Part shown: positions 1 through 42,545 of the stretch, piece after piece
Position numbering within the stretch: position 1 is the stretch's first letter
Layout: every line of letters starts with the position of its first letter
Assembly (NCBI RefSeq): GCF_048403405.1
Contig: NZ_CP183129.1
Strand: one strand, 5' to 3'
DNA length: 64,000 nt
Origin: Escherichia coli
GTDB lineage: Bacteria > Pseudomonadota > Gammaproteobacteria > Enterobacterales > Enterobacteriaceae
Translations under genes and position numbers: made by a program
The notes under the pieces: model-generated
Database searches by the model: none
What the model was told of the DNA's origin: nothing
What the model saw: only the letters and a program-made list of their open reading frames with translations

Positions 1-370
1 GAATGTAGAAGAAAAATATTTCGATACCGTCCTGGCCGGACTGTGTGTGGGTTATGCCACCGAAAGACATGCGGGCACCAAAAAAGAGGTCTGCACCTGC
101 GTCGGCAATGTCGATTTACAGATGGGACGTGACCTGACAACCGTGCGTAAAGTCGTCGGATCCGGCGGATGGCTCTCGCGTGCCAGTCAGTTCGATATGC
201 ATCACTGGTTGAAATACCGCGAGTTAAACGACGACGGTAAACGCATTCTCTTACCGACCGAATTTGAATATTACCGCGATTCCCGGGGGCTATTACCACT
301 GCTGGCAAACGTCGCCAGAGTCGATCCGCTGGCCGCCGCGCGCACCAGTATTCAATGCTTAACCCTATAA
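1..370 (+). CDS. 5'-truncated CDS, probable glutamate mutase accessory component L (GlmL/MutL-like), C-terminal part
   Basis: Reading frame is open from window position 2 to the stop at 368-370; lies immediately upstream of the glmE-like gene as in known glmS-glmL-glmE operons; identity inferred from gene order, not from a recognised motif. Confidence 0.5.
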   Translation, partial: NVEEKYFDTVLAGLCVGYATERHAGTKKEVCTCVGNVDLQMGRDLTTVRKVVGSGGWLSRASQFDMHHWLKYRELNDDGKRILLPTEFEYYRDSRGLLPLLANVARVDPLAAARTSIQCLTL

Positions 371-388
371 CAATTAAGGCTGCAATCA

Positions 389-1834
389 ATGGAACTTCGA
401 AATAAGAAATTAACCCATGACGAATTCATGACCGAGCGGCAACAGGTACTGAAAACCTGGGAAACCGGCAAGGATGTTGAAAACTTTGAAGATGGCGTTA
501 AATACCAACAAACCATTCCTGAGCATAAACGCTTCTCTCTTGTGCTGTTGAAAGCAGACAAGGAAGGTAAAACCCTTAGCCAACCGCGCGCAGGTGTGGC
601 GCTGATGGACGAACACATCGAACTACTGAAAACACTACAAGAAGAGTGCGATCTGCTGCCGAGCACTATCGATGCATATACCCGTCTGAATCGGTACGAA
701 GAAGCGGCTGTAGGGATTAAAAAATCCATCGAAGCCGGAACCTCTAAACTGAACGGTTTACCGGTCGTTAACCACGGCGTCGCAGCTTGCCGTCGCCTCA
801 CCGAAACTTTGCAAAAACCGCTACAGATCCGCCACGGCACGCCAGATGCGCGTCTGCTGGCTGAAATCTCGATGTCCAGCGGCTTTACCAGTTATGAAGG
901 CGGCGGCATTTCCTACAATATTCCGTATGCCAAGCGCGTAACGCTGGAAAAATCGATCCGCGACTGGCAGTACTGCGACCGTTTAATGGGGATGTATGAA
1001 GAACACGGGATCCGCATCAACCGCGAACCGTTTGGCCCACTAACGGGTACGCTGATCCCGCCGTTTATCTCGCACTCTATCGCGATAATCGAAGGCTTGC
1101 TGGCGCTGGAACAGGGTGTGAAATCTATCACCGTTGGTTATGGACAGGTCGGCAGCCTGACGCAGGATGTTGCGGCGATCCAGTCTCTGCGTGAACTTGC
1201 ACACGAATATTTTCAGAGCTATGGCTATACCGACTATGAATTAAGTACCGTGTTTCACCAGTGGATGGGCGGCTTTCCGGAAGACGAATCGAAAGCGTTC
1301 GCTATTATCTCCTGGGGCGCAGCCGTCGCGGGGATGTCTGGTGCCACCAAAGTCATCACCAAAAGTCCGCACGAAGCCTGGGGTATCCCGACTGCCGCTG
1401 CCAACATTCAGGGGCTGAAAGCCTCCCGCCAGATGCTCAACATGGTCAACGAGCAGAAATTCCCGCCGTGCCCTGCGGTTGAACTGGAAATTGAACTGAT
1501 TAAGAGCGAGGTTCGCGCGGTACTGAATAAAGTGTTCGAACTGGGTAATGGTGATATTGCGCGCGGTACGGTGCTGGCATTTGAAGCGGGCGTACTGGAT
1601 GTGCCGTTTGCGCCAGCCGCCTGCAACGCGGGCAAAATTCTTCCGGTCCGTGACAACACCGGCGCGATACGCGTACTGGAAGCCGGAGCCGTTCCATTGC
1701 CAAAAGATATTCTCGACCTCCACCACGATTACGTTGCGGAACGCGCACGCTTTGAAGGACGCCAACCGACATTCCAGATGGTTGTAGATGACATCAATGC
1801 TGTATCCCACAGTAAATTAATAGGAAGACCATAA
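389..1834 (+). CDS. glmE: glutamate mutase epsilon (E) subunit, coenzyme B12-dependent methylaspartate mutase
   Basis: 481 aa ORF; N-terminus MELRNKKLTHDEF...PRAGVALMDEH resembles GlmE as I recall it; followed by methylaspartase with overlapping stop/start. Confidence 0.8.
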   Translation: MELRNKKLTHDEFMTERQQVLKTWETGKDVENFEDGVKYQQTIPEHKRFSLVLLKADKEGKTLSQPRAGVALMDEHIELLKTLQEECDLLPSTIDAYTRLNRYEEAAVGIKKSIEAGTSKLNGLPVVNHGVAACRRLTETLQKPLQIRHGTPDARLLAEISMSSGFTSYEGGGISYNIPYAKRVTLEKSIRDWQYCDRLMGMYEEHGIRINREPFGPLTGTLIPPFISHSIAIIEGLLALEQGVKSITVGYGQVGSLTQDVAAIQSLRELAHEYFQSYGYTDYELSTVFHQWMGGFPEDESKAFAIISWGAAVAGMSGATKVITKSPHEAWGIPTAAANIQGLKASRQMLNMVNEQKFPPCPAVELEIELIKSEVRAVLNKVFELGNGDIARGTVLAFEAGVLDVPFAPAACNAGKILPVRDNTGAIRVLEAGAVPLPKDILDLHHDYVAERARFEGRQPTFQMVVDDINAVSHSKLIGRP

Positions 1835-3075
1835 TGAAAATAAAACAGGCTCTGTTCACCGCTGGCTACTCCTCATTCTATTTCGATGACCAGCAGGCGA
1901 TAAAAAACGGAGCGGGTCACGACGGTTTTTTTTATACCGGGGAGCCGGTAACACAGGGGTTTAACGCCGTTCGTCAGGCCGGGGAGTGCGTATCGGTACA
2001 GTTGATTCTGGAAAACGGCGCGGTCGCCGTAGGTGACTGTGCTGCCGTACAGTATTCCGGGGCAGGTGGTCGCGATCCACTGTTCCTCGCAGAGCACTTT
2101 ATTCCGTTCCTCAACGACCATATCAAGCCATTACTGGTAGGCCGCGATGTGGATGCTTTCCTGCCGAATGCCCGTTTCTTCGACAAATTGCGTATTGACG
2201 GCAACTTGCTGCATACCGCCGTGCGCTACGGATTATCACAGGCGCTGCTTGATGCTACCGCGCTGGCAACCGGCCGTCTGAAAACTGAAGTGGTCTGTGA
2301 TGAATGGCAGTTGCCACGCGTGGCGGAATCCATTCCATTATTTGGTCAGAGCGGCGACGATCGATATATCGCCGTCGATAAGATGATCCTTAAGGGCATC
2401 GACGTGCTGCCCCATGCGCTGATTAATAACGTCGAAGAGAAGCTGGGCTTTAAAGGTGAAAAACTGCGCGAATATGTCCGCTGGCTGTCGGATCGTATTC
2501 TGAGCAAGCGCACCAGCGCACGCTACCACCCTACCCTGCACATCGATGTATACGGCACTATCGGTCTGATCTTCGATATGGATCCGCTTCGCTGTGCGCA
2601 ATACATCGCCAGCCTGGAAAAAGAAGCGCAAGGCCTGCCGCTCTACATTGAAGGGCCGGTCGATGCTGGTAACAAGCCCGATCAAATTCGCCTGCTGACC
2701 GCGATTACCAAAGAGCTGACACGCCTCGGTTCCGGCGTGAAAATTGTGGCCGATGAATGGTGTAACACCTACCAGGATATTGTTGATTTCACAGATGCCG
2801 CCAGTTGCCACATGGTGCAAATCAAAACCCCGGATCTGGGCAGTATTCACAACATCGTCGATGCGGTTCTTTACTGCAACAGCCACAGCATGGAAGCGTA
2901 CCAGGGCGGCACCTGCAATGAAACTGATGTCAGTGCCCGCACCTGTGTCCACGTCGCCCTTGCCGCTCGCCCTATGCGTATGCTGGTAAAGCCAGGGATG
3001 GGCTTTGACGAAGGCCTCGATATCGTCTTCAACGAAATGAATCGTACTATCGCGCTGTTGCAGGCTAAGGATTAA
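1834..3075 (+). CDS. 3-methylaspartate ammonia-lyase (beta-methylaspartase)
   Basis: 413 aa, the expected size for methylaspartase (enolase superfamily); start ATG overlaps the glmE stop (TAATG at 1832-1836). Confidence 0.8.
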   Translation: MKIKQALFTAGYSSFYFDDQQAIKNGAGHDGFFYTGEPVTQGFNAVRQAGECVSVQLILENGAVAVGDCAAVQYSGAGGRDPLFLAEHFIPFLNDHIKPLLVGRDVDAFLPNARFFDKLRIDGNLLHTAVRYGLSQALLDATALATGRLKTEVVCDEWQLPRVAESIPLFGQSGDDRYIAVDKMILKGIDVLPHALINNVEEKLGFKGEKLREYVRWLSDRILSKRTSARYHPTLHIDVYGTIGLIFDMDPLRCAQYIASLEKEAQGLPLYIEGPVDAGNKPDQIRLLTAITKELTRLGSGVKIVADEWCNTYQDIVDFTDAASCHMVQIKTPDLGSIHNIVDAVLYCNSHSMEAYQGGTCNETDVSARTCVHVALAARPMRMLVKPGMGFDEGLDIVFNEMNRTIALLQAKD

Positions 3076-3078
3076 CAA

Positions 3079-4449
3079 ATGGCTCGTTCTTTTAAAGTCT
3101 TATCGCCAACGGCAATCCTCGGGTATGGATTCCCGGAAGAGAGCTTCCGTAAAGCGATGGCAGAATCGCCCGATCTGATCGCCGTTGATGCAGGCTCTTC
3201 CGATCCTGGCCCCCACTACCTCGGGGCGGGCAAACCGTTTACCGATCGCGCAGGGGTCAAGCGCGATCTGCGCTATATGATCACCGCAGGCGTGCAAAAT
3301 AATATACCGGTGGTGATCGGAACGGCTGGCGGTTCTGGTGCCGCACCACACCTGGAGTGGTGCCGAGAAATAATTCATGAGATTGCCCAGGAAGAGCACC
3401 TCTCGTTCTCAATGGCGCTGATCCCGGCAGACGTTGACAAAGCCATCGTCCACCAGGCGCTGGATAACGGCAAAATCACGGCGCTGGAGTTTGTCCCGCC
3501 GTTAACCCACGACGCGATTGACGAAAGTACGTATATCGTTGCGCAAATGGGCATCGAACCCTTCCAGCGGGCGCTGAAAGAAGGCGCGCAAGTGGTGCTG
3601 GGCGGGCGCGCTTACGACCCGGCCTGCTTTGCTGCGCTTCCGATCATGCAAGGCTTTGATGAAGGTCTGGCGCTGCATTGTGGGAAAATCCTTGAATGCG
3701 CGGCAATCGCCGCAACGCCCGGCTCAGGCTCTGACTGTGCGATGGGCATCATTGATGACAACGGCTTTACGCTGAAGACATTTAATCCGAAGCGTAAATT
3801 TACCGAAACGTCAGCGGCTGCACACACACTGTATGAGAAATCCGATCCCTACTTCCTGCCTGGACCTGGCGGCGTGTTGAACCTGAAAGGCTGCACATTT
3901 AAAGCGGTCAATGACAGCGAAGTGTACGTCAGCGGTTCTAAGCATGAAGAAACGCCGTATGCCCTGAAACTGGAAGGTGCGCGACGAGTGGGCTTCCGCT
4001 GTCTGACCATCGCAGGAACGCGCGACCCGATCATGATCGCCGGGATCGATAAAATCATCGATGAAGTCAAAACCAGCGTTTCGCGTAACCTGTCGCTCGA
4101 CGATGACAGCATTCGCATCAATTTCCACCTGTACGGCAAAAACGGGGTGATGGGAGACCATGAACCGATGCAAACTGCCGGGCATGAGCTGGGGATTGTC
4201 CTTGATGTAGTTGCACCGACCCAGGAAATTGCCAACAGCGTTTGCTCGCTGGTGCGCTCTACCATGCTGCACTACGGCTATGAAAACCGCATCGCTACCG
4301 CAGGTAATCTGGCGTTCCCGTTCTCCCCTTCTGATATCCAGGGCGGGCCGGTATACGAATTTTCCATATATCACCTGATTGAAGCCAACGACGCTCTGCG
4401 TTTTGATTTCCATATTGAACAGGTGACGCCAGAAGGAGTTCAGGCATGA
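3079..4449 (+). CDS. uncharacterised protein, AtuA/DUF1446-like family (function unknown)
   Basis: 456 aa ORF 3 nt after the methylaspartase stop; family assignment from memory of AtuA-like proteins, unverified. Confidence 0.55.
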   Translation: MARSFKVLSPTAILGYGFPEESFRKAMAESPDLIAVDAGSSDPGPHYLGAGKPFTDRAGVKRDLRYMITAGVQNNIPVVIGTAGGSGAAPHLEWCREIIHEIAQEEHLSFSMALIPADVDKAIVHQALDNGKITALEFVPPLTHDAIDESTYIVAQMGIEPFQRALKEGAQVVLGGRAYDPACFAALPIMQGFDEGLALHCGKILECAAIAATPGSGSDCAMGIIDDNGFTLKTFNPKRKFTETSAAAHTLYEKSDPYFLPGPGGVLNLKGCTFKAVNDSEVYVSGSKHEETPYALKLEGARRVGFRCLTIAGTRDPIMIAGIDKIIDEVKTSVSRNLSLDDDSIRINFHLYGKNGVMGDHEPMQTAGHELGIVLDVVAPTQEIANSVCSLVRSTMLHYGYENRIATAGNLAFPFSPSDIQGGPVYEFSIYHLIEANDALRFDFHIEQVTPEGVQA

Positions 4450-4763
4450 AACAGTCAATTGTCTCACTGGCGCAAGTCATTCGTTCGAAAAATGCCGGAC
4501 CTTACGAACTGGTTTTAGATATTTTATTTAAAACCAAAGAAAACTATGAGCGTGTCAAATCATCAGGGCAATTAACCCCAGAACTGATCGCGCGCTTATA
4601 TCATGTTGAACCTGACTTTATTCATCGTATTGTCTGGTTTGATCCTTCTAACGCAGTAAAAATCGTCATGCCACGAGATATTATCTCCGGGAATGTAGGT
4701 GACAATGATGTCTATGGTGCACAGCAACATGCACCTTTATTAAATATGAGTTTCGATTTGTAA
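4446..4763 (+). CDS. small uncharacterised protein, DUF4387-like partner of AtuA-like proteins
   Basis: 105 aa ORF; start ATG overlaps the upstream stop (ATGA at 4446-4449), indicating translational coupling. Confidence 0.5.
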   Translation: MKQSIVSLAQVIRSKNAGPYELVLDILFKTKENYERVKSSGQLTPELIARLYHVEPDFIHRIVWFDPSNAVKIVMPRDIISGNVGDNDVYGAQQHAPLLNMSFDL

Positions 4764-4923
4764 AAATCCGAATACTTTTAGCCAACTGACATCCCGTCAC
4801 TTATTGCAGTTCAACACTTCAGCTATTTGTAAGGTTGTAATAGCAGGTAGATGCCTGAATCTCTATTCGGGCATCTACTTCTCCTGATTCTGATTTATCG
4901 CCGTGCACCTGATGGAGGAAAAA

Positions 4924-6204
4924 ATGAAGAAAATAAGTTTAACCACGATGATTCTTTTGGCGCTGGTACTTGGAATGATTATCGGCGTAGTGCTCAATAA
5001 CACTGCTTCACCGGAAACCGAAAAACTCTATGCGCAAGAAATATCGATATTCACGACGATTTTCTTACGACTGATAAAAATGATTATCGCTCCGTTAGTG
5101 GTCTCTACCCTGGTGGTAGGTATAGCTAAAATGGGCGATGCCAAAGCCCTTGGTCGTATTTTTTCTAAAACACTCTTTTTATTTATTTGCGCCTCATTGC
5201 TGTCAATTGCCTTAGGCTTGATAACAGTAAATTTCTTCATGCCAGGCACAGGAATTAATTTTGTTGCACACGGAGCCGAAACCACCGGAGTGGTCGCGTC
5301 AGAACCCTTTACGCTAAAAGTATTTATTTCGCATGCTTTCCCCACCAGCATTGTCGATGCCATGGCGCACAATGAAATTTTGCAAATCGTGGTGTTCTCA
5401 ATTTTCCTCGGCTGTAGCCTGACGGCGATTGGCGAGAAAGGCAGCGCCATCGTTCACGCCTTAGATTCGCTGGCACATGCCATGTTAAAGCTCACTGGCT
5501 ACGTCATGCTCTTCGCTCCCCTGACCGTATTCGCTGCTATTTCAGCATTGATTGCTGAACGAGGACTGGCAGTTATGGTGAGCGCCGGGATCTTTATGGG
5601 TGAATTTTATTTCACCATGTTATTACTTTGGGTGCTGCTTATCGGTCTGGCCATCGTTTATGTTGGCCCCTGCATCAGACGCCTGACCCGCGCCCTTTCG
5701 GAACCCGCCCTGCTGGCATTTACCACATCCAGTTCTGAAGCGGCTTTTCCGGGAACGCTTGAAAAACTGGAGCAATTTGGCGTTTCCCCCAAAATTGCCA
5801 GCTTTGTCTTACCCATTGGCTACTCATTTAATCTTGTTGGATCAATGGCCTACTGCTCCTTCGCCACAGTTTTCATCGCCCAGGCCTGCAATATCCATTT
5901 ATCCATCGGTGAGCAAATCACCATGCTGTTGATCCTGATGTTGACCTCGAAAGGAATGGCTGGCGTACCACGCGCCTCAATGGTGGTTATCGCCGCCACG
6001 CTCAACCAGTTCAATATTCCGGAAGCGGGGCTGATCTTGCTGATGGGCGTTGATCCGTTCCTTGATATGGGGCGTTCCGCGACAAACGTCATGAGCAACG
6101 CAATGGGCGCTGCGATGGTGAGTCGGTGGGAAGGCGAACATTTCGGCGAGGGTTGTCGGGGTAAAGCATTAAAACCCAATGAATCGAACGTTGCTCTGCC
6201 CTGA
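4924..6204 (+). CDS. sodium:dicarboxylate symporter family transporter (glutamate/aspartate or C4/C5-dicarboxylate:cation symporter-like)
   Basis: About 426 aa, highly hydrophobic multi-helix protein; GGAGG 5 nt upstream of the ATG at 4924 (longest ORF begins at 4903). Confidence 0.75.
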   Translation: MKKISLTTMILLALVLGMIIGVVLNNTASPETEKLYAQEISIFTTIFLRLIKMIIAPLVVSTLVVGIAKMGDAKALGRIFSKTLFLFICASLLSIALGLITVNFFMPGTGINFVAHGAETTGVVASEPFTLKVFISHAFPTSIVDAMAHNEILQIVVFSIFLGCSLTAIGEKGSAIVHALDSLAHAMLKLTGYVMLFAPLTVFAAISALIAERGLAVMVSAGIFMGEFYFTMLLLWVLLIGLAIVYVGPCIRRLTRALSEPALLAFTTSSSEAAFPGTLEKLEQFGVSPKIASFVLPIGYSFNLVGSMAYCSFATVFIAQACNIHLSIGEQITMLLILMLTSKGMAGVPRASMVVIAATLNQFNIPEAGLILLMGVDPFLDMGRSATNVMSNAMGAAMVSRWEGEHFGEGCRGKALKPNESNVALP

Positions 6205-6311
6205 GGGGGATCTTAAGCAATCAGAAGCCAATGACTACGCATTTTTATAAGCCGGATCATGAAGTTAGACGGCAATTAAGTAAAACTAACGTTTAAGGTG
6301 AAAAGTGAAAT

Positions 6312-7964
6312 ATGTCCAAACCATTTATCTGGCAAGAACCGTTTCTACAAAATAAAGACGGTACAGAATATACATTAATTAGCGATCAACATATTACAGT
6401 AACGGAATTAGACGGCGAAGAAGTAATAAAAATCGCTCCTGAAGCATTAACGCTGCTTGCCCGGCAGGCATTTTATGAAGCCTCTTTTTTCTTACGTTCC
6501 GCTCATTTGCAACAGGTCGCCAGCATTCTTAACGATCCGCAGGCCAGTAGTAATGATAAATACGTTGCGTTGCAGTTATTACGTAATGCTGAAGTCTCAG
6601 CAAAAGGGGTATTACCCAACTGTCAGGATACCGGCACCGCAACTATTGTTGCCAGTAAAGGGCAACAGATATGGACGGGAGGTAACGACGCTGAAGCCTT
6701 AAGCAAAGGCATTTACAGTACTTTCCAGGAAAATAACCTGCGCTTTTCACAAAATGCGCCGCTGGATATGTACACCGAAGTCAATACGCAAACCAATCTC
6801 CCGGCGCAGATTGATATCAGCGCTGTCGCTGGTGATGAGTACCATTTTCTCTGTATTAATAAAGGGGGCGGCTCTGCCAATAAAGCCGCGCTTTATCAGG
6901 AAACCAAATCCTTATTGCAACCAGAAAAACTGACCGCATTTTTAATCGAAAAAATGAAATCGCTGGGCACCGCTGCCTGCCCGCCTTACCACATCGCCTT
7001 TGTCGTCGGAGGGCTTTCAGCCGATCAAACCTTAAAAGTTGCCAAGCTGGCCTCAACGAAATATTACGACAATTTGCCCACCAGCGGAAACGAGCAAGGA
7101 CAAGCATTCCGTGATATTGAGCTGGAAAAAGTATTGCTCGAGGCCAGTCAGCAATTTGGTATTGGTGCGCAATTTGGAGGTAAATATTTCGCTCATGATA
7201 TTCGCGTCATTCGTCTGCCGCGTCACGGTGGCTCCTGCCCGATAGCTATGGCGCTCTCCTGTTCTGCCGATCGCAATATCAAAGCAAAAATTAACAAGCA
7301 CGGTATCTGGCTGGAAAAACTCGAACACAATCCGGGGCAATATATTCCAGCCTCACTGCGGGAAGAAAATCACGCGCAACATGTACAACTGGATCTAAAC
7401 CGTCCGTTGCGTGACGTGATGCAGGATCTCGCCAGATTACCGGTAGGCACCCGCGTGTCGTTAAGTGGTCCCATCGTAGTGGCACGCGATATCGCCCACG
7501 CCAAAATAAAAGCGCGGCTGGATAACGCCGAACCGATGCCGGATTACCTGAAGCATCATATTGTCTATTACGCTGGCCCGGCGAAAACACCGGAGAACAT
7601 GGCCTGCGGTTCACTGGGTCCAACCACGGGCGGTCGAATGGACGGTTATGTCGATACCTTCCAGGCGGCTGGCGGCAGTCTGGTGATGTTATCGAAAGGT
7701 AACCGCAGCCAGCAGGTCACCGATGCCTGTCACAAACATGGTGGCTTCAATCTGGGTAGTATTGGCGGTGCAGCTGCGTTACTGGCGCAAGAATATGTCA
7801 AAAGTCTGCGTTGCCTGGAATACCCGGAGCTGGGTATGGAAGCGGTGTGGATGATGGAAGTGGAAAATCTGCCCGCATTCATCCTGGTAGATGATAAAGG
7901 CAATAATTTCTTTAGTCAGTTTGAGCAGCAACACCGCTGCGCCAGTTGCCCTGCGGGACATTAA
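6312..7964 (+). CDS. fumD: class I fumarate hydratase family protein, probable mesaconase/fumarase (FumD-like)
   Basis: 550 aa, FumA/FumB-like length; C-terminal Cys-rich tail; located in the methylaspartate operon. Confidence 0.75.
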
Positions 7965-7973
7965 GGAAAATGA

Positions 7974-8576
7974 ATGGAAGCGCGAATTTCAACTGAACGG
8001 CATGTGCAGCGCCAGCAGAAATTGAAGGAACAGGTCGATACGCGCGTCGCGGCGGCGATAGAGAAAAAAGGGATTTTGATTGTTTTCACCGGCAATGGCA
8101 AAGGGAAATCCACTGCCGCGTTTGGTACTGTGACGCGCGCGGTGGGTCATGGCAAAACGGTGGGGGTTGCGCAGTACATCAAGGGGCAATGGGACAACGG
8201 CGAATACAACCTTCTCCAGCCGCTGGGGGTTGAGTTTCATATTATGGGAACCGGTTTTACCTGGGAGACACAGAACCGGCAAGCGGATATCGACGCGGCG
8301 AAAGAGGTCTGGTCGGAAAGCAAACGGATGCTGGCTGACAAGCGTTACGACTTAGTGGTGCTTGATGAGCTGACCTATATGCTGGCTTACCATTATCTGG
8401 ACACCGAAGAAGTGATCGCTTCTCTGCAAAACCGCCCGGCACAACAAAGTGTCATTGTCACCGGACGCGGTTGCCACAGTCAGATATTAAAAATGGCGGA
8501 TACGGTCAGCGAAATCCGCCCCGTCAAACATGCTTTTGATAACGGCATTCAGGCGCAGCCGGGTATCGACTGGTAA
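7974..8576 (+). CDS. corrinoid (cob(I)alamin) adenosyltransferase, BtuR/CobO-family paralog
   Basis: 200 aa with P-loop-like FTGNGKGKSTAAFG motif; close resemblance to E. coli BtuR (about 196 aa) as recalled. Confidence 0.8.
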   Translation: MEARISTERHVQRQQKLKEQVDTRVAAAIEKKGILIVFTGNGKGKSTAAFGTVTRAVGHGKTVGVAQYIKGQWDNGEYNLLQPLGVEFHIMGTGFTWETQNRQADIDAAKEVWSESKRMLADKRYDLVVLDELTYMLAYHYLDTEEVIASLQNRPAQQSVIVTGRGCHSQILKMADTVSEIRPVKHAFDNGIQAQPGIDW

Positions 8577-8609
8577 TAACTGCGCCTGGCATCCCGCCAG
8601 GCGCAGGTT

Positions 8610-9515
8610 TTACATCTCCTGCGGTACGACCGATTTCGCCAGCAACCATTCACGAAATTGCTGCAAGTGCGGCGAGTCAGACTTCTCTTCCTGCCACGTC
8701 ATAATAAAACGATTACCGGTACGAATAGGCACATCACAGGGAATCACCATATCGCCACTATCCAAATCATGTTGAATAGCGAACCGTGGTAACAGCGCCA
8801 CGCCGAGATTAGAGCGCACGGCGGCAATCAGCATTGAAAGCAAATCGAAACGTGGTCCGTTATTGACCAGCGGACTGCTAACGCCAGATAAAGCAAACCA
8901 CTCTTCCCAGCCAGTAATACGGGTGCTTTGATGCAGAAGTGGTAACTCAGTAAGCAGTTCTGCCACTGACAGTTTTTGATCGGACATTGCAAGCAAACTG
9001 CCGCTGCATACCGGCAAAATCTCCTCATCAAAGAGATATTCTACTTCCGCCCAGGGCGCGCAAAAATTTTCGCGCATAATGACAGCATCGTACTCCCGAT
9101 TAAGAAAATCGCCGTTATTAGCTAAAGAATGAATATTAACAATAATATCGGGATGTAACTTTGTGAATTCATGTAAATTTGGGATTAACCAGTGGGTACT
9201 AAAAGTAGGATTAACGGCAAGTTCAATAACCTGAACCGTAGGCTGCCAGGTCATAATGGTATTGGTATCGCGTTCCAGCTTATTTAATGTTTCTTTTACT
9301 ATCCCCAGGTAATACTTCCCTGCATCATTAAGAAAAATACGTTTTTTAGAGTGTGAAAATAACGGAGTATGTAAAAATTCCTCCAGCGCACTCACTTGTC
9401 TGAATACAGCACTTTGGGTTAACGCTAACTCCTCTGCCGCTCTGGTATAACTTTCATGACGTGCGACGACCTCAAAAGTCACCAGCAGCTCCGTTTTAGG
9501 TATTTTTCCTCGCAT
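8610..9515 (-). CDS. LysR-family transcriptional regulator
   Basis: 301 aa; N-terminal helix-turn-helix (LVTFEVVARHESYTRAAEELALTQSAVFRQVSALE) plus a substrate-binding-domain-sized C-terminus. Confidence 0.85.
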   Translation of the reverse strand: MRGKIPKTELLVTFEVVARHESYTRAAEELALTQSAVFRQVSALEEFLHTPLFSHSKKRIFLNDAGKYYLGIVKETLNKLERDTNTIMTWQPTVQVIELAVNPTFSTHWLIPNLHEFTKLHPDIIVNIHSLANNGDFLNREYDAVIMRENFCAPWAEVEYLFDEEILPVCSGSLLAMSDQKLSVAELLTELPLLHQSTRITGWEEWFALSGVSSPLVNNGPRFDLLSMLIAAVRSNLGVALLPRFAIQHDLDSGDMVIPCDVPIRTGNRFIMTWQEEKSDSPHLQQFREWLLAKSVVPQEM

Positions 9516-10080
9516 AATGCCGTCCCTTAAAAATAGTTTAAACCATCAAAAATACATTACTTATTACGAAGTAATGGTAACCAAAGCAGCAATAAATAAT
9601 TTATAAGAATCATGATTGACATTTATAACCCAGTAAGCCTGGCGTGACAAATATCTTAATCAGATAATAATAATCCGAAAAGCACAGCGCCTTTCGAATT
9701 ATCCGGAATCACATTAAGTGAAAATTATTAAATTGATATCATTTATCATATCTGTGGATATTATGATAAACAATCAACAAAGATTTTATTTTTGATTTAT
9801 AGCATATCCCTCTAAGAATTTTTGCGATGCTGCAATATCCGGGTAAAGACCCGATCCTGGCTGACAAATGGCACGACTTGACGATAAGCGGTGAACATCG
9901 CTTTTGTTGATTTACTTAACGCTACGGTCAAACGCTGGGAAGCCAGTGCATCAGGTAACGATTCGAAATTCGCCGTCGTTCTTATTCGTGGCTTGCGGTC
10001 GGTTGCGGCAATCCACAGTGGCTGTGGTCATGCAGTCAAGCCAGCGGTCAGATTTCGACCGTGGTTAACATTTAAGGCAT

Positions 10081-10179
10081 AAAAAAGGCCATCATACGAT
10101 GGCCAACCATGTCGAAACCGACAGCCCTTCGCCATTCCTGTAGAGGGAAGCGGCGAGGGCTATTTCTTATTACAGATAT
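10081..10179 (-). ncRNA. sdhX: 3'UTR-derived small RNA SdhX (RybD) at the end of the sdh-suc operon, with intrinsic terminator
   Basis: Lies immediately 3' of the sucD stop on the minus strand; ends in hairpin GGCCATCGTATGATGGCC followed by a T-run (plus strand 10081-10104); identity recalled from E. coli K-12. Confidence 0.5.
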
Positions 10180-11049
10180 TTATTTCAGAACAGTTTTCAG
10201 TGCTTCACCGATATCCGCCAGGCTGCGAACGGTTTTCACGCCTGCGGCTTCCAGAGCAGCGAATTTCTCATCCGCAGTCCCTTTTCCACCGGCAATGATC
10301 GCACCCGCGTGGCCCATACGTTTGCCTTTCGGCGCAGTCACACCAGCGATGTAACCCACAACAGGCTTGGTAACGTGCTCTTTGATGTACGCAGCCGCTT
10401 CTTCTTCAGCGCTACCGCCGATCTCACCGATCATCACGATCGCTTCGGTCTGCGGATCTTTTTCGAACATTTCGAGGATGTCGATAAAGTTAGAGCCAGG
10501 GATCGGGTCGCCGCCGATACCAACACAGGTCGACTGACCGAAACCGTAATCCGTGGTCTGTTTCACCGCTTCATAGGTCAGTGTACCGGAACGGGAAACG
10601 ATACCCACTTTACCCGGTTTGTGAATGTGACCAGGCTGGATACCGATTTTGCATTCACCCGGAGTGATAACGCCTGGGCAGTTCGGGCCGATCATGCGAA
10701 CGCCCGCTTCATCCAGTTTCACCTTCACGGTCAGCATATCCAGCGTCGGGATGCCTTCAGTGATGGTGATAATCAGTTTGATGCCTGCATCAATAGCTTC
10801 CAGAATGGAGTCTTTGCAGAACGGTGCTGGTACGTAGATAACAGAAGCGGTAGCGCCAGTAGCAGCAACAGCTTCACGCACGGTGTTGAACACCGGCAGG
10901 CCGAGGTGGGTGGTGCCGCCTTTACCTGGGGTTACGCCGCCAACCATTTTAGTGCCGTATGCAATGGCCTGTTCTGAGTGGAAAGTCCCCTGGCTACCGG
11001 TAAAGCCCTGGCAGATAACCTTGGTGTTTTTATCAATTAAAATGGACAT
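10180..11049 (-). CDS. sucD: succinyl-CoA synthetase alpha subunit
   Basis: 289 aa; [33 protein letters not shown]; canonical operon position. Confidence 0.96.
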
Positions 11050-12215
11050 TATTTCCCCTCCACTGCGGCAACAACCTGCTGAGCTGCATCCGTCAGACCT
11101 TTTGCTGCAATAATATTCAGGCCGCTGTCAGCCAGTTTCTTCGCGCCGAGTTCGGCGTTGTTACCTTCCAGACGTACCACGACCGGTACGTTAACACCCA
11201 CTTCCGCTACCGCGCCGATGATACCGTCAGCGATCAGGTCGCAACGAACGATACCGCCGAAGATGTTAACCAGAACGGCTTTCACTTTGTCGTCAGAGAG
11301 GATGATTTTGAACGCTTCGGTTACACGTTCTTTGGTTGCGCCGCCGCCAACGTCAAGGAAGTTAGCTGGTTCGCCGCCGTGCAGTTTAACGATGTCCATC
11401 GTACCCATCGCCAGACCTGCGCCGTTAACCATACAACCGATGTTACCGTCCAGCGCAACGTAGTTCAGTTCCCACTGTGCAGCCTGTGCTTCACGTGGAT
11501 CTTCCTGCGACTGGTCACGCATTTCGCGCAGATCAGGCTGGCGGAACAGTGCGTTGCCATCAGCGCCCAGTTTGCCGTCGAGGCAAATCAGATCGCCCTG
11601 TTTGGTGATGACCAGCGGGTTGATTTCGATCAGCGCCAGGTCGCGCTCCAGGAAAATGGTCGCCAGGCCCATGAAGATTTTGGTGAACTGCTGAACCAGT
11701 TTACCTTCCAGACCCAGTTTGAACGCCAGCTCGCGTCCCTGATACGGCATCGGGCCAGTCAGCGGATCAAGCGCAACTTTGTGGATCAGGTGCGGAGTTT
11801 CTTCCGCCACTTTTTCGATTTCCACGCCGCCTTCGGTGGAGGCCATAAAGACCACACGACGGGAACTACGGTCAACAACGGCACCGAGATACAGCTCTTT
11901 AGCGATATCGGTCGCTGCTTCAACCAGAATCTGGTTAACCGGTTGGCCATTGGCATCTGTTTGATACGTTACCAGACGCTTGCCCAGCCAGTTTTCTGCA
12001 AAAGCACGGATGTCTTCTTTGCTGTTTACAACTTTCACACCGCCCGCTTTACCGCGGCCACCAGCGTGAACCTGACATTTCACTACCCACGGACCGGCAC
12101 CGATTTTTGAAGCGGCTTCTTCTGCTTCGCGCGGAGTAGTACAGGCATAACCCACCGGTGCTGGTAAGCCATAGCGGGCAAAAAGTTGTTTTGCCTGATA
12201 TTCATGTAAGTTCAT
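11049..12215 (-). CDS. sucC: succinyl-CoA synthetase beta subunit
   Basis: 388 aa; [18 protein letters not shown]; stop overlaps the sucD start. Confidence 0.96.
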
Positions 12216-12254
12216 GTGTTCTGTCCATCCTTCAGTAATCGTTATCTTTTAAAC

Positions 12255-12286
12255 CGTAGACCGACACCCTATCCACGTCGGTCTAC
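12255..12286 (-). other. 10-bp perfect inverted repeat (RNA stem-loop) in the sucB-sucC intergenic region
   Basis: GTAGACCGAC...GTCGGTCTAC with an 11-nt loop, between the sucB stop and the sucC start. Confidence 0.5.
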
Positions 12287-12308
12287 AGTGCAGGTGAAGC
12301 TTAAACTA

Positions 12309-13526
12309 CTACACGTCCAGCAGCAGACGCGTCGGATCTTCCAGCAACTCTTTGATCGTTACCAGGAAGCCCACGGATTCGCGACCATCGATCAGACGGT
12401 GATCGTAGGACAGCGCCAGGTACATCATCGGCAGGATCTCAACCTGACCATTCACCGCCATCGGACGATCTTTGATAGCGTGCATACCCAGAATTGCGCT
12501 CTGCGGCGGGTTGATGATCGGCGTAGACATCAGGGAACCGAACACACCACCGTTGGTGATGGTGAAGTTACCACCGGTCAGATCTTCAACCGTCAGCTTG
12601 CCGTCACGGCCTTTAACTGCCAGCTCTTTGATTTTCTTCTCGATGTCTGCCATGCCTAGGGTATCGACATCACGCAGTACCGGCGTCACCAGGCCGCGCG
12701 GCGTAGAAACCGCCATGCTGACGTCGAAATAGTTGTGGTAAACCACATCATCGCCGTCGATAGACGCGTTCACTTCCGGGTAACGTTTCAGGGCTTCAAC
12801 CACCGCTTTCACGTAGAAGGACATAAAGCCCAGACGAATACCGTGACGTTTTTCAAACGCTTCACCGTACTGCTTACGCAGATCCATAATCGGCTTCATG
12901 TTGACTTCGTTGAACGTGGTCAGCATAGCGGTGGAGTTTTTCGCTTCCAGCAGACGCTCTGCCACACGCTTACGCAGGCGAGTCATCGGGACACGTTTTT
13001 CGCTACGTGCAGCCAGAGCCGGTTGCGCCGCCGGAGCAGCCGCTGCCGGAGCAGACTCTTTCGCCGGGGCTTTCGCCAGATGTTTTTCCACATCTTCACG
13101 AGTCAGACGACCACCCACACCGGTGCCTTTAATGGCGCTGGCGTCGAGGTTGTGTTCAGCCAGCAGGCGACGGATCGCCGGGCTTAACGCATCGTTGTTT
13201 TGCTCTTCCAGAGACGCCTGCTGGCGTTGCGCCGGAGTGGACGCTTTCTCTTCAGATTTGGCGCTGGTTTCTTTACCGGCGCTGTTGCCTTCACGCAGGC
13301 GACCAAGGATCTGACGAGACGTTACCGTTGTACCTTCATCTTCCAGAACCGCATCCAGAATGCCGTCTGCTGATGCCGGTACTTCCAGTACCACTTTGTC
13401 AGTTTCGATTTCTACCAGCACTTCATCACGTACGACTGCGTCGCCGGGTTTTTTATGCCAGGTTGCGACGGTGGCATCGGCTACGGATTCAGGCAGGTCA
13501 GGGACCAGAATATCTACGCTACTCAT
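12309..13526 (-). CDS. sucB: 2-oxoglutarate dehydrogenase E2 (dihydrolipoyl succinyltransferase)
   Basis: 405 aa; lipoyl domain and Ala/Pro-rich linker. Confidence 0.96.
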
Positions 13527-13540
13527 TGTGTATCCTTTAT

Positions 13541-16342
13541 TTATTCGACGTTCAGCGCGTCATTAACCAGATCTTGTTGCTGTTTCTGGTGAACGGACAT
13601 ATACCCTACCGCCGGAGAGGCGGAGGCCGGGCGGCCTGCATAACGCAGAGAAGCCCCAAACGGAATCACTTCACGGAAATGATGCTGGCTGCAGTACCAT
13701 GCGCCCTGGTTGAGCGGCTCTTCCTGGCACCAGACAAAATCCTTGACGTGAGCAAACTGCTGCAACACTTCCTGCATCGCTTTATGCGGGAACGGGTAGA
13801 GTTGCTCGATACGCACAATGGCGACATCGTGTTGATTGTTCTTACGGCGTTGTTCCAACAGGTCGTAATAAACCTTACCAGAACACATCACTACGCGCTT
13901 CACACCCTTCGGATCAAGCTCGTCGATTTCACCAATGGCAGGCAGGAAGGTGCCGTTCGCCAGTTCTTCGAGGCTGGAAACCGCCAGCGGATGACGCAGC
14001 AGGGATTTCGGCGACATCACGACCAGCGGACGACGCATCCCGCGCAGCGCCTGACGACGCAGCATGTGGTAAACCTGTGCCGGGGTAGACGGTACGCACA
14101 CCTGCATGTTTTGCTCAGCACAAAGTTGCAGATAACGTTCCAGACGCGCGGAGGAGTGCTCCGGCCCCTGCCCTTCGTAACCGTGCGGCAGCAACATCAC
14201 CAGACCACACATCCGGCCCCATTTCTGTTCGCCAGAGGAGATGAACTGGTCGATAACCACCTGAGCACCGTTAGCGAAGTCACCGAACTGTGCTTCCCAG
14301 ATAGTCAGAGTGCGTGGTTCTGCGGTGGCATAACCGTATTCAAACGCCAGCACGGCTTCTTCTGACAGTACGGAGTCCCAGACACGAAACGCGCCCTGAC
14401 CGTTATGGATGTGTTGCAGCGGCGTGTAAGTGGAACCGTTAGACTGGTTGTGGATCACCGCGTGGCGGTGGAAGAAGGTACCGCGACCGGAGTCTTCACC
14501 CGACAGGCGAACCGGAATGCCTTCGTCAACCAGCGTGGCGTAAGCGAGGTTTTCCGCGCCGCCCCAGTCGAACAGTTTCTCACCAGCTGCCATCGCCTGG
14601 CGATCGCCATAAATCTTGGCAACGCGAGACTGCATTTCAACTGCTTCCGGCACCGTGCTGATGCGTTTAGCCAGTTCCTGCAGGCGCTTCATCTCAACTT
14701 TGTTCGGGTACTCTTCGTCCCATTCGTGGTTGAGGTACGGCGACCAGGTGAAAGAGTGCATGTTCATCGGACGCCACTCTGCCACTACGCAATCGCCAGC
14801 ATCCAGCGCATCGCGGTACAGGTTAACCATCTCGGTGGCATCTTCGAGCGTCGCCACTTTTTCTTGCTCCAGCTTGTCAGCGTAGATTTTGCGCGGCGTC
14901 GGATGTTTTTTGATTTTCTGATACATCAGCGGCTGGGTTGCGCTCGGCTCGTCGGCTTCGTTGTGGCCATGACGGCGGTAGCACACCAGGTCGATGAAGA
15001 CATCACGTTTAAAGGTGTTACGGAAATCGAGCGCCAGACGGGTCACAAAGGCAACGGCTTCCGGATCATCCGCGTTAACGTGGAAAATCGGTGCCTGAAC
15101 CATCTTACCGATATCAGTACAGTACGGCGTCGAACGGGCATCCAGCGGGTTAGAGGTGGTGAAGCCAACCTGGTTGTTGATAACGATACGTACCGTACCG
15201 CCAACTTCATAGCCACGCGCTTTCGACATGTTCAGGGTTTCCTGAACCACGCCCTGCCCGGTCACTGCGGCGTCACCGTGGATGGTAATTGGCAGCACTT
15301 TGTTGCTGCTCGGCTCATCAAGTCTGTCCAGACGGGCACGAACAGAACCGATAACGACCGGGCTTACAATCTCAAGGTGAGACGGGTTAAACGCCAGCGC
15401 CAGGTGTACCAGGCCGCCATCGGTCTGGAAGTCAGACGAGAAGCCCATGTGGTATTTCACGTCACCCGTGCCGAGGTGTTCTTTATGTTTACCGGCAAAC
15501 TCGTCGAACAAGTCTTGCGGTTTTTTACCCAGCACGTTCACCAGCACGTTCAGACGACCACGGTGCGCCATCCCAAGAACCACTTCGCGGGTGCCGCTGT
15601 TGCCAGCGTGGCGGATCATCTCTTTAAGCATCGGGATTAACGCGTCACCGCCTTCCAGCGAGAAGCGTTTTGCACCAGGGAATTTTGCACCGAGGTAACG
15701 TTCAAGGCCTTCAGCGGCGGTCAGTTCGCTTAAGAAGCGTTTTTTCTCTTCGCTATTGAAAGTCGCGCGACCAGACTCGATACGCTGTTGGATCCAGCGT
15801 TTTTCTTCGGTGCTGGTAATATGCATATACTCGGCGCCAATCGGGCCGCAGTAGGTTTGCTTGAGTGCTTCCAGCAGTTCGCCGAGTTTCATGGTTTCTT
15901 TGCCGCTGGCAAATGAACCGACGTTGAAGGTCTCCTGGAAGTCTGCTTCGGTCAGATCGTGGAAAGACGGATCCAGATCGGCCACTTTATCTTGCTGCCA
16001 CAGTCCCAGCGGATCGAGATTCGCATGCTGGTGACCACGGAAGCGGTATGCGTTAATGAGCTGCAGGACTTTAACCTGCTTCACATTGGTGTCAGGGTCG
16101 GAGATCGTTGAAGAGTAACGTGAAGCGTCTTTCGCCAGGCGGCGGAAATATTCACGCGTTTGAGAGTGGAATTGATCCGGTTTGACTCCCGTACCAGGTA
16201 ACTGCTGGAACGTCGAACGCCAGTTAGCGTCAACCGAGTCAGGATCGGTTAAGAAGTCTTCATAGAGCTGTTCTATCCAGCTCTGGTTTGCGCCAGAGAG
16301 GTAAGAAGAGTCCAACCAGGCTTTCAAAGCGCTGTTCTGCAT
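13541..16342 (-). CDS. sucA: 2-oxoglutarate dehydrogenase E1 component
   Basis: 933 aa; [31 protein letters not shown]. Confidence 0.96.
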
Positions 16343-36057: not shown

Positions 36058-36906
36058 TTAATCCTGTTGTAGCAGGACAAGATTACGAAAGCGCGCTCCC
36101 CGCAAGGACTGACGCCAGATAGTTTCTGTCCATGGCTGCCCTTTCCATTCAAACGTGAAATCAATAAGTTCATCAGGGACACCGCAAACAATATGAAGAC
36201 GGATTTCTTCTCTGCCGTGACTCTTTTCACTCATTGCGAAACTGTCATGCTCTGGATTATTTAATTCTTTCAGTGGGAATTTTTCCTCAAAGGCTTTATT
36301 AAGCCGTCCCTGATTTCCTTTTACAGCGAATAAATAATCACCGCCCTGTTTTTGTATCTTCTCTGCGATATCTTTCTGGCAACCCATCGCATCAGTTGTG
36401 ATAATTTTTCCTTTAATATCCAACATGTTAAGAAGTTCAGGGATAGCTGTGATCTCATTGGATTTCTCATCCGTCCTGATCTGTCCGATGACCAGACTGT
36501 GCATTGTTGAGAACGCACTAATGACATGAATCGCTCCCCTGCGGCGACTCTTGTCATAAGAATGCCGGAGCGTTTTTCCATCAATTGCAATAACGTCTTT
36601 ATCATCTGAAGAATGGCAGTCACGCATCCAGTTAATAAAGCACTCGTGAAATTTTGCAGGACTGATACAGGATACAACTCTGGCAATGGTATCGTGAACA
36701 GGAATACCATTTTCAAAATCACCATATTGCTTCAAAAAATCGAGATGTGTTTCCCCAAAATCCTCTATATCTTCCCAGCCTTCTGCACCAGAAATAACGG
36801 CACAAATAGTCAACAGTAGAATATCCGACAATTTATGTTCCACTTTCCAGGCTTGTCTGTAATCGGGGATAATAGAAATATGTTCCATCAATTTTTTAAG
36901 TTCCAT
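36058..36906 (-). mobile_element. ybfD: H-repeat-associated (ISAs1-family) transposase gene, 3'-truncated remnant
   Basis: 282 aa ORF with N-terminus [51 protein letters not shown] typical of H-rpt proteins; homology ends after ...FTFEWKG, then an unrelated short tail (full-length proteins are about 378 aa as recalled). Confidence 0.8.
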
Positions 36907-37013
36907 TTTGTTCTCCTTAATTATGTAAAGAGTATTTGATCATGTATACGCAATAAAAAACAGCTTCAGGTAATGAGGAATATCTCAATTTTTAAACATA
37001 AAATGCGAATTAC

Positions 37014-37593: not shown

Positions 37594-37623
37594 CGCAGTG
37601 GTAGAGGTGGATTATTCGCAGTG
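37571..37623. repeat. 23-bp tandem direct repeat (2 copies plus a partial third) at the 5' edge of the orphan rhs fragment
   Basis: CGCAGTGGTAGAGGTGGATTATT at 37571-37593 and 37594-37616, then CGCAGTG. Confidence 0.9.
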
Positions 37624-37706
37624 ATCTATATGCCAACGTCATCTTATTTTTCATCTACTCCAACGAGTAGACAAGTTTTTTATTAAACCATTTATACCTT
37701 TTACGA

Positions 37707-42358: not shown

Positions 42359-42545
42359 CTGCTCATCCTTGTTTTATCGGGTTATTTGTCTGCTGACAGG
42401 CGAAACCCTACAGATTTATAAGAAAGCCTTAAGTGAGATATCTGTCAGATAAGAACAATTAGGAAAATATTTATATATATTTCATGAATATATGTTTCGA
42501 TTGGTATAACGGTGTCTAAATATTCCTCTGAACATCTTCCTGATA

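Follow-up and report, generated by a model that had tools for sequence, protein, structure and literature searches.

A B12-dependent glutamate breakdown cluster next to sucD in Escherichia coli, with CmlAB as its predicted citramalate lyase

A gene cluster for B12-dependent glutamate breakdown was reported in Escherichia coli O157:H7 and other Enterobacteriaceae by Kronen & Berg in 2015 (PMC4682846). It encodes, in order, GlmS, MutL/GlmL, GlmE, Mal, a DUF1446 protein, a GltP-like carrier, FumD, CobA and an LTTR. FumD from O157:H7 ATCC 700728 was characterized as a mesaconase/fumarase, and neither the role of the DUF1446 gene nor what becomes of citramalate was explained (PMC4682846). The same chemistry, running from glutamate through methylaspartate, mesaconate and (S)-citramalate to pyruvate and acetate, is known from Clostridium tetanomorphum and C. 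tetani. A citramalate lyase, CmlAB, has been solved (PDB 9ERQ and 9EVF; Raoultella planticola enzyme, Berg laboratory); its subunits of 456 and 105 aa belong to the AtuA and DUF4387 families, and its position after mal is shared with the locus described here. No primary paper on this enzyme was found in a literature search, and it appears only in a 2026 preprint in which R. planticola cmlAB, in living E. coli, turned mesaconate-derived citramalate into pyruvate and acetate/acetyl-CoA, the products being given as pyruvate plus acetate (bioRxiv 10.64898/2026.01.16.699985).

The window analysed here is a stretch of 64,000 nt of an E. coli contig. The cluster that it contains is the one already described for O157:H7-type strains, with the same gene order; it is real, was correctly read in the first-pass annotation and has been in print since 2015. 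Positions 1–10077 form the right-hand 10 kb of an accessory cluster of roughly 14 kb in total, which would encode a complete adenosylcobalamin-dependent methylaspartate pathway. RefSeq, in its annotation of a genome with 100 % identity (locus L001), agrees with the gene list and puts glmS and the missing 5' portion of glmL before position 1, where they had been expected. The ORF listing has the ORFs from 389–1834 to 8610–9515 at the coordinates annotated before, and each of the eight that lie completely inside the window is intact. The end of the block, formerly put at 9515, moves outwards, accessory DNA reaching to about 10077. The features are as follows.

2–370, + strand: 3' end of glmL/mutL, 122 codons, for the accessory protein that reactivates glutamate mutase; TIGR01319
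389–1834, + strand: glmE, glutamate/methylaspartate mutase E subunit; TIGR01503 equivalog
1834–3075, + strand: mal, 3-methylaspartate ammonia-lyase; TIGR01502 equivalog
3079–4449, + strand: predicted cmlA, citramalate lyase large subunit of the non-citrate-lyase type, AtuA/DUF1446 family; 92 % identity to PDB CmlA
4446–4763, + strand: predicted cmlB, citramalate lyase small subunit, DUF4387; match to 9ERQ chain B and Pfam DUF4387
4924–6204, + strand: DAACS/SDF-family dicarboxylate/amino acid:cation symporter, presumed glutamate importer; RefSeq start ATG 4924
6312–7964, + strand: fumD, class I Fe-S fumarase paralogue, predicted mesaconase/fumarase; NF011921 equivalog
7974–8576, + strand: cobO/btuR-type cob(I)alamin adenosyltransferase, which would make adenosylcobalamin for glutamate mutase; TIGR00708
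8580–8606, no strand: GC-rich, terminator-like hairpin (stem of 11 bp) separating cobO from the convergent lysR (inverted repeat I8)
8610–9515, − strand: LysR-type regulator, convergent with the operon; best NCBIfam model of the GcvA subfamily
9516–9917, no strand: AT-rich region upstream of lysR, GC 0.36–0.41
9918–9978, no strand: deletion scar, remnant of a hut-cluster lyase gene of the HAL/PAL family; blastn
9982–10038 and 10039–10077, no strand: deletion scars, rtcB scraps including the rtcB 3' end; blastn
10079–10179, − strand: sdhX small RNA (sucD 3' UTR); alignment to K-12 b4764
10180–11049, − strand: sucD; NCBIfam SucD model, 492 bits

Scores of NCBIfam HMMs were judged against the curated cut-offs, and every family assignment made in the first-pass annotation was confirmed in this way; the methylaspartate route that it had proposed from glutamate mutase, methylaspartase and mesaconase is upheld by these scores and by the published cluster (PMC4682846). 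The glmL fragment is in frame from base 2 through 370, and its 122 aa reached 221 bits with TIGR01319 (cut-off 204) over profile positions 336–456 of 456, whilst the full-length gene of locus L001 scored 507 bits with NF040745 (cut-off 475). Directly upstream of it in the same locus lies glmS, encoding the B12-binding S subunit (NF002612, 253 bits against a cut-off of 110). GlmE matched TIGR01503 with 863.5 bits (cut-off 390.1), residues 3–481 aligning to profile positions 1–480, and is 99.4 % identical to the protein of O157:H7 SS17, with a dN/dS of 0.045. Mal matched TIGR01502 over its full length (543.9 bits, cut-off 286.15). The TAATG stop/start overlap between glmE and mal can be read in the sequence at 1832–1836, as noted earlier.

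The two genes that follow mal had been left unassigned. In RefSeq the first is an 'acyclic terpene utilization AtuA family protein' and the second a 'DUF4387 domain-containing protein'; neither product is covered by an NCBIfam model. The first product is 92 % identical to the 'citramalate lyase' subunit A of PDB 9ERQ/9EVF, with a weak match to Pfam AtuA (PF07287, 69 bits); the second, whose gene overlaps the first by 4 nt, shares 88 of 104 aligned residues (about 85 % identity) with chain B of 9ERQ, named there as 'Citramalate lyase, subunit B (cmlB)', and matches Pfam DUF4387 with E=3e-39. The pair thus consists of an AtuA-family subunit of ~456 aa and a DUF4387 subunit of ~105 aa, both closely similar to the solved CmlAB and encoded immediately 3' of mal, as in every cluster examined. 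A syntenic cluster of a Klebsiella-type locus, likewise lying between cydA and sucD, encodes exactly the CmlA sequence of the PDB entries. On these similarities the two genes are predicted to encode CmlA/CmlB citramalate lyase orthologues, which would supply the citramalate cleavage step that the 2015 paper could not find. Since these previously unassigned genes match a solved citramalate lyase, the cluster is likely to encode the entire pathway by which glutamate becomes pyruvate plus an acetyl unit; the explanation as a whole is given a probability of roughly 0.85. An initial idea that the AtuA/DUF4387 pair might supply the absent lyase, drawn from the chemical parallel with hydroxy-acid cleavage in the atu pathway, became superfluous once the PDB entries matched.

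The titles of the two PDB entries, 'AMPPNP-citramalate complex' and 'ADP-pyruvate complex', suggest that citramalate cleavage by CmlAB uses ATP, because the solved complexes pair AMPPNP with citramalate and ADP with pyruvate. Going by these same titles, acetyl phosphate is one possibility for the second product, and with acetate kinase there would then be no net ATP cost at the cleavage step. Tentatively, and with rather less than even confidence, CmlAB might be a lyase that consumes ATP, has its own distinct fold and phosphorylates citramalate to yield pyruvate and acetyl phosphate, and the cydA–sucD interval might be an ancestral histidine/glutamate catabolic block, trimmed in lineages such as the present one; the latter idea arose because a hut cassette adjoins the cluster in some E. 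coli. Those who deposited 9ERQ/9EVF are probably aware already of an ATP-consuming, acetyl phosphate-releasing CmlAB, if this is how it works.

Downstream of cmlB, the symporter gene starts at ATG 4924 in RefSeq, with an alternative GTG at 4903. The product had been called a Na+:dicarboxylate symporter; membership of the DAACS/SDF family stands, whereas Na+ coupling and a dicarboxylate substrate gain no support from its best NCBIfam scores, which lie below the cut-offs (DctA, 314 bits against 513; GltP, 305 bits against 638). As DctA scores slightly above GltP and both fall short, glutamate is presumed, rather than read from the models, to be the substrate; the carrier is labelled GltP in the legend of Fig. 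5 of Kronen & Berg (PMC4682846). As an observation on this gene, the stop codon of the symporter has been lost in O157:H7 SS17.

FumD exceeded the cut-off of its own model (NF011921, 1284 bits against 1060) and stayed below those of the FumA (928 against 1105 bits) and FumB-type (922 against 1094 bits) models. It is 98.7 % identical to FumD of O157:H7 SS17, and the allele in the window is predicted to be a mesaconase/fumarase; the first-pass annotation was correct in linking a FumD mesaconase to such a cluster in O157:H7 (PMC4682846). CobO scored 246.6 bits with TIGR00708 (cut-off 167.75) and 296 bits with NF004637 (cut-off 185). The hairpin at 8580–8606 is likely to act as a two-way terminator. 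The LysR-type protein, a presumed pathway regulator, reached 222 bits with the GcvA subfamily model, below the cut-off of 288, and its gene is kept at the same place in Klebsiella-type loci.

Neither a cobalamin riboswitch nor any other RNA family was matched by Rfam at the gathering score in window positions 1–12500, and the glmS leader (L001 3700–7000) gave no Rfam match at E≤0.1. A promoter scan found seven sites compared with 12.6 in shuffled sequence, and no promoter is claimed because the sites were fewer than in the shuffled sequence. No Rfam model matched sdhX either, so this RNA was placed by alignment to K-12; it equals b4764 except for one mismatch at the 3' end, just past the T-run of the terminator (hairpin at 10087–10104), where similarity to K-12 stops. 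It is the first conserved core DNA at the right-hand border and lies outside the cluster. The block had been described as abutting the sucD 3' end, which is right as to neighbourhood but not as to direct contact, sdhX standing in between.

The earlier description of an island absent from K-12 holds for the absence: K-12 lacks the block, and mngRAB stands in its place. 'Inserted' is too simple, as the cydA–sucD interval is a mosaic of interchangeable cassettes, where the cluster is accompanied in other E. coli by hut, rtcB or mngRAB, and the cluster occupies the same position in a Klebsiella-type genome. A simple swap between the cluster and mngRAB was rejected, as both are present in some genomes. 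The region upstream of lysR is common to other cluster-bearing E. coli, with 87 % identity to locus L003 up to 9922, and the scar region at 9918–10077 matched loci L003, L004, L005 and L006 with 87–97 % identity by blastn; the gene identities of the scars were obtained by combining these matches with the annotation of the same loci.

Hallmarks of a classical genomic island were not seen. No tRNA gene and no flanking or boundary repeats were found at the cluster and no integrase in the RefSeq annotation of the identical genome; GC from glmS to cobO is 0.511, near that of the flanks (0.52–0.54); and the same site is filled in the Klebsiella-type genome. The sole deviant part lies outside the window, where two AT-rich hypothetical genes (GC 0.35) upstream of glmS gave no NCBIfam or PADLOC match. 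The first of these genes and the sdhX terminator share 18 nt in inverted orientation, probably by chance. The cluster would be an old resident of the cydA–sucD site in enterobacteria rather than a recent insertion by a mobile element.

Among 5426 complete E. coli genomes, 1134 contained the cluster and about 79 % were without it. Identity to O157:H7 genomes was 98.7 % at the DNA level, and protein identity to O157:H7 SS17 ranged from 98.7 to 100 %. Values of dN/dS were 0–0.11 relative to O157:H7, and pN/pS was 0.07–0.15 relative to the Klebsiella-type locus; the cluster is under strong purifying selection. The core glmS–mutL–glmE–mal–cmlA–cmlB was found in three of the four distant taxa sampled.

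In the pathway proposed, glutamate would be brought in by the DAACS symporter and rearranged by GlmS/GlmE to (2S,3S)-3-methylaspartate, GlmL maintaining the activity of the mutase and CobO providing its cofactor from salvaged cobalamin. Methylaspartase would then remove ammonia to leave mesaconate, which FumD would hydrate to (S)-citramalate, an activity known from the O157:H7 enzyme. The two-subunit CmlAB would finally split citramalate into pyruvate and an acetyl unit, as known for the 92 %-identical orthologue. The convergent LysR presumably regulates the operon.

Counting against this explanation, O157:H7 ATCC 700728 showed no anoxic growth on glutamate, and no methylaspartase activity was detected in O157:H7 under any condition tried (PMC4682846). 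The cluster might instead serve mainly for external C5-dicarboxylates (mesaconate, methylaspartate and citramalate), imported by the symporter and passed to FumD and CmlAB. Such a role would suit the top model of the symporter, the C4-dicarboxylate carrier DctA (314 against 305 bits for GltP), and FumA plus Cml alone enable mesaconate-dependent growth of engineered E. coli (bioRxiv 10.64898/2026.01.16.699985); in Burkholderia, the mesaconase activity of a class I fumarase is reported to support growth on or use of mesaconate. Against this role, four genes (glmS, glmL, glmE and cobO) are dedicated to the B12-dependent conversion of glutamate to methylaspartate and, where examined, are under strong purifying selection. 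The glmSLE–mal–cmlAB core is moreover conserved across phyla, and some relatives add a glutaminase or a hut cluster, both feeding glutamate, and we regard this role as unlikely.

More doubtful still is a pathway that runs no further than (S)-citramalate or mesaconate and excretes that product, for instance as a metabolite aimed at the host, with CmlAB doing something else. Excretion was raised by Kronen & Berg, who found no citramalate lyase activity in O157:H7 extracts, but those extracts came from cells without expression of the cluster (PMC4682846). The orthologues of CmlAB (92 % and about 85 %) bear the name citramalate lyase in PDB entries that contain citramalate and pyruvate as ligands, a CmlAB orthologue acts as citramalate lyase in vivo (bioRxiv 10.64898/2026.01.16.699985), and cmlAB comes immediately after mal in each cluster examined. 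Least credible is a silent, decaying remnant without present function in E. coli, even though laboratory-grown O157:H7 gave no sign of expression (PMC4682846), scars of neighbouring cassettes adjoin the cluster, the O157:H7 SS17 symporter has no stop codon and the cluster is missing from about 79 % of the complete genomes of E. coli. Decay is at odds with eight intact ORFs out of eight complete ones in the window, with the low dN/dS (within E. coli) and pN/pS values given above, and with the retention of at least 80 % of the cluster in 1118 of the 5426 complete genomes. The complete methylaspartate pathway is the explanation that we prefer.

About one-fifth of complete E. coli genomes, O157:H7 included, bear the cluster, and with CmlAB recognized it would suffice to convert glutamate, a plentiful compound in the gut, all the way to pyruvate and acetate by means of salvaged vitamin B12. 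The practical value lies in annotation, as RefSeq still gives AtuA and DUF4387 names to the lyase subunits and NCBIfam offers no model for them.

Comparison with other systems shows how far the resemblance extends. The AtuA protein of acyclic terpene utilization in Pseudomonas shares a Pfam family with CmlA, but no atu genes surround cmlA, and the name 'AtuA' is a family label only. To our knowledge, the function of Pseudomonas AtuA itself has not been established. The haloarchaeal methylaspartate cycle shares glutamate mutase and methylaspartase, leading to mesaconate; there mesaconate becomes mesaconyl-CoA for acetate assimilation, whereas in E. coli it would be hydrated by FumD and cleaved through CmlAB, and no CoA-transferase is encoded in the E. 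coli cluster. Clostridial GlmS/GlmL/GlmE and Mal are homologous to the E. coli proteins, but mesaconase is the two-subunit MesAB in clostridia and the single-chain FumD in E. coli. The clostridial citramalate lyase is of the citrate-lyase type with an acyl-carrier subunit (CitDEF with CitCXG), to which CmlAB is unrelated; the ORFs of the E. coli cluster are all accounted for, with no CitD/E/F-like subunits among them. E. coli adds CobO, the symporter and LysR, the clostridial regulator being of the GntR type. From the O157:H7 cluster the window shows no essential difference (PMC4682846): the cluster is the same one, in a different lineage of E. coli.

The following genes were found in the left part of the window, up to and including sucD.

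Genes of the cluster and its right flank (window coordinates, strand, product and supporting match)
2–370, +, in-frame 3′ fragment of glmL (GlmL family, NCBIfam, 221 bits on 122 aa)
389–1834, +, glmE, methylaspartate mutase E (NCBIfam, 863 bits vs cut-off 390)
1834–3075, +, mal, methylaspartate ammonia-lyase (NCBIfam, 544 bits vs cut-off 286)
3079–4449, +, cmlA (PDB match; weak Pfam AtuA match)
4446–4763, +, cmlB (4-nt overlap with cmlA; DUF4387)
4903/4924–6204, +, symporter of the DAACS family (NCBIfam)
6312–7964, +, fumD (class I fumarase model distinct from FumA/FumB, 1284 bits vs cut-off 1060)
7974–8576, +, cobO, cob(I)alamin adenosyltransferase (NCBIfam, 247 bits vs cut-off 168)
8610–9515, −, convergent LysR-type regulator (NCBIfam, family level only)
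10180–11049, −, sucD (SucD, NCBIfam)

The first-pass annotation had described a co-directional, tightly packed block with a convergent LysR gene and sucD beyond it. The ORF list bore out this layout, with the block on the plus strand and with the glmE stop and methylaspartase start overlapping in TAATG at 1832–1836, and the product families it had named were recovered in NCBIfam above the curated cut-offs for GlmL, GlmE, Mal, class I fumarase and CobO. The genome of E. coli MS 69-1, which is 100 % identical, has the same annotation for these genes and carries cydA, two hypothetical genes, glmS and full-length glmL, in that order, just upstream, where glmS and the 5′ part of glmL had been expected. 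The ORFs, the NCBIfam placements and the annotation of the identical genome therefore confirm the original observation; the feature is real and was read correctly. The symporter scored below the cut-offs of both the GltP and DctA models in the NCBIfam profile search. In O157:H7 SS17 its gene has lost the stop codon through a 1-nt deletion (locus L010 12195–12300, approximately window 6196–6204), which adds 31 codons, and is flagged as a pseudogene by PGAP.

The two genes initially left unassigned are predicted to encode the subunits of a citramalate lyase. The 3079–4449 product gave a weak Pfam match to AtuA (E=5e-19) and the 4446–4763 product matched DUF4387 (E=3e-39); the NCBIfam profile search offered no model for CmlA or CmlB. 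A PDB sequence search retrieved near-identical chains for both products, named by the depositors ‘Citramalate lyase, subunit A (cmlA)’ and ‘subunit B (cmlB)’, with identities of 420/456 (92.1 %) for A and about 85 % (88/104 aligned residues) for B. These chains belong to entries 9ERQ (‘Citramalate lyase - AMPPNP - citramalate complex’, released 2025-10-22) and 9EVF (‘Citramalate lyase - ADP - pyruvate complex’, released 2025-10-08). A protein identical to PDB chain A is encoded by several enterobacterial chromosomes, for example CP003218.1, which we take to be a Klebsiella oxytoca/michiganensis strain; its gene lies there in a cluster between cydA and sucD that has the gene order found here plus a glutaminase gene. 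In the Klebsiella-type loci L007–L009 that gene (13431–14432) lies between the symporter gene and fumD, and is lacking in the E. coli cluster; it is drawn as GlsA in a figure by Kronen & Berg (PMC4682846). The GC content of cmlB, 0.39 (0.34 at third codon positions), is far below that of the overlapping cmlA, 0.55 (0.61), yet each of the three further E. coli genomes used for comparison (SS17, FDAARGOS_497 and the O169:H41 strain) encodes a CmlB protein 100 % identical to that of the window.

Homology above curated thresholds shows the predicted identities of GlmSE with GlmL, of Mal and of CobO. In the proposed pathway, the symporter would import glutamate and CobO would adenosylate salvaged cobalamin, E. 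coli having no de novo B12 synthesis. FumD is expected to hydrate mesaconate to (S)-citramalate, given the biochemistry of the O157:H7 protein, whose SS17 copy is near-identical to that of the window. CmlAB would then cleave citramalate to yield pyruvate, an activity transferred from the 92 %-identical orthologue, and may use ATP, judging only from the PDB titles. The second product could be acetyl phosphate, which is chemically sensible since an acetate carbanion would be hard to form directly; a recent preprint (bioRxiv 10.64898/2026.01.16.699985), by contrast, names acetate, and reports from growth and isotope labelling that FumA and Cml convert mesaconate to acetyl-CoA precursors in E. coli. 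The LysR protein may regulate the operon, and a GC-rich hairpin at 8580–8606, between cobO and the LysR gene, is plausibly a two-way terminator. Rfam detected no cobalamin riboswitch in window 1–12500 or in the glmS leader region of the MS 69-1 locus.

Similarity to K-12 extends from sucD through the sdhX small RNA (window 10079–10179, minus strand) and ends right past the sdhX terminator, at ~10077; at the left border, outside the window, it returns ~370 bp upstream of cydA. The cydA–sucD interval of K-12 contains mngR-mngA-mngB. Among 5426 complete E. coli genomes the cluster was present in 1134 (20.9 %), at least 80 % of it in 1118 of these, and mngRAB in 3884. Four arrangements were distinguished.

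Arrangements of the cydA–sucD interval
A, mngRAB only: K-12
B, cluster only: this window, MS 69-1, O157:H7
C, cluster, rtcB and mngBAR: O169:H41, MEI003
D, cluster, hut (histidine utilisation) cassette and rtcB: FDAARGOS_497

Since arrangement C carries both, the cluster and mngRAB are not strict alternatives. The hut cassette of FDAARGOS_497 (NZ_CP033850.1; L003 18786–26527) lies between the LysR gene of the cluster and rtcB and comprises genes for a HAL-family lyase, hutG, hutI, hutD, a permease and hutU. Histidine breakdown yields glutamate, so in arrangement-D strains a glutamate-producing module adjoins a glutamate-degrading one. In the cydA–glmS gap (L001, the MS 69-1 locus, 4538–5985) lies a pair of AT-rich hypothetical genes (35 % GC; products of 314 and 140 aa). 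They form part of the cluster as it occurs in E. coli, are missing from the Klebsiella-type locus and matched nothing in NCBIfam or PADLOC. An 18-nt inverted match (16/18) between the start of the first of these genes (L001 4580–4597) and the sdhX terminator hairpin (window 10091–10108) is probably due to chance.

The first-pass annotation had proposed an insertion absent from K-12. The absence was upheld, mngRAB being there instead, whilst recent insertion was not. In the stretch that separates the region upstream of lysR from the sdhX terminator, blastn revealed scraps of the missing cassettes: 9918–9978 (61 nt) matches, at 87 % identity, an internal part of the HAL-family lyase gene found in arrangement D, and 9982–10038 (57 nt) and 10039–10077 (39 nt) match segments of rtcB at 88–97 % identity, among them the 3′ end of that gene beside sdhX. 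The same scars occur in O157:H7. Arrangement B therefore looks, from these remnants, as though it arose by deletion from a D-like arrangement. Annotation and sequence scans found no tRNA gene, integrase or boundary repeat at the site, and the operon GC content (0.511) is near the flank values. Moreover, pS against the Klebsiella-type locus (0.58–0.78) is at least as high as in the flanking cyd/suc genes (0.41–0.46), which argues against recent transfer between the E. coli and Klebsiella-type lineages. The cluster fits the description of an old cassette, retained in some strains and not in others, better than that of a recent insertion.

All ORFs are intact, and dN/dS of 0–0.11 against O157:H7 and pN/pS of 0.07–0.15 against the Klebsiella-type locus indicate that the genes are under purifying selection, which argues against a decaying remnant despite the lack of laboratory expression (PMC4682846). 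Far from the cluster, at about 36100–42400, the window carries the gene for an RHS element core protein, accompanied by an RHS fragment and a truncated transposase of the ISAs1 type (ybfD). The ybg fimbrial operon and genes for the utilisation of D-threonate lie in other parts of the window. All of this belongs to the usual variable gene content of E. coli and has no connection with the cluster.

The system has been described before: the cluster in 2015, the lyase through the October 2025 PDB releases and the 2026 preprint. As the first-pass annotation had noted, a FumD mesaconase linked to such a cluster has been described in O157:H7: this very cluster was reported there and in other Enterobacteriaceae by Kronen & Berg (PLoS One 2015; PMC4682846), who list GlmS, MutL/GlmL, GlmE, Mal, a DUF1446 protein, GltP, FumD, CobA and LTTR. 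The window proteins are 98.7–100 % identical to those of O157:H7 SS17 (FumD, 98.7 %). These authors detected no citramalate lyase activity, growth on glutamate or cluster expression, and left ‘the further fate of citramalate’ unsettled. The present analysis contributes two things: the previously unassigned gene pair is attributed to CmlAB, so that on paper the pathway is complete, and the cydA–sucD interval is recognised as having a mosaic history. CmlA homologues at 60–70 % identity are widespread, and the glmS-mutL-glmE-mal-cmlA-cmlB core was kept in three of the four distant genomes sampled, including Candidatus Rifleibacterium; two of these three encode a class I fumarase in the fetched flank. 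Outside the enterobacteria, the gene after cmlB in these clusters encodes a conserved ~315-aa protein (L012 9712–10665, L013 9677–10618, L014 9698–10654) with no Pfam family and only weak Walker-A/ABC-ATPase-like matches, which is missing from the E. coli cluster. Conservation of the core supports the view that, clostridia apart, CmlAB is the lyase that normally accompanies the methylaspartate pathway, whereas clostridia use a citramalate lyase of the citrate-lyase type.
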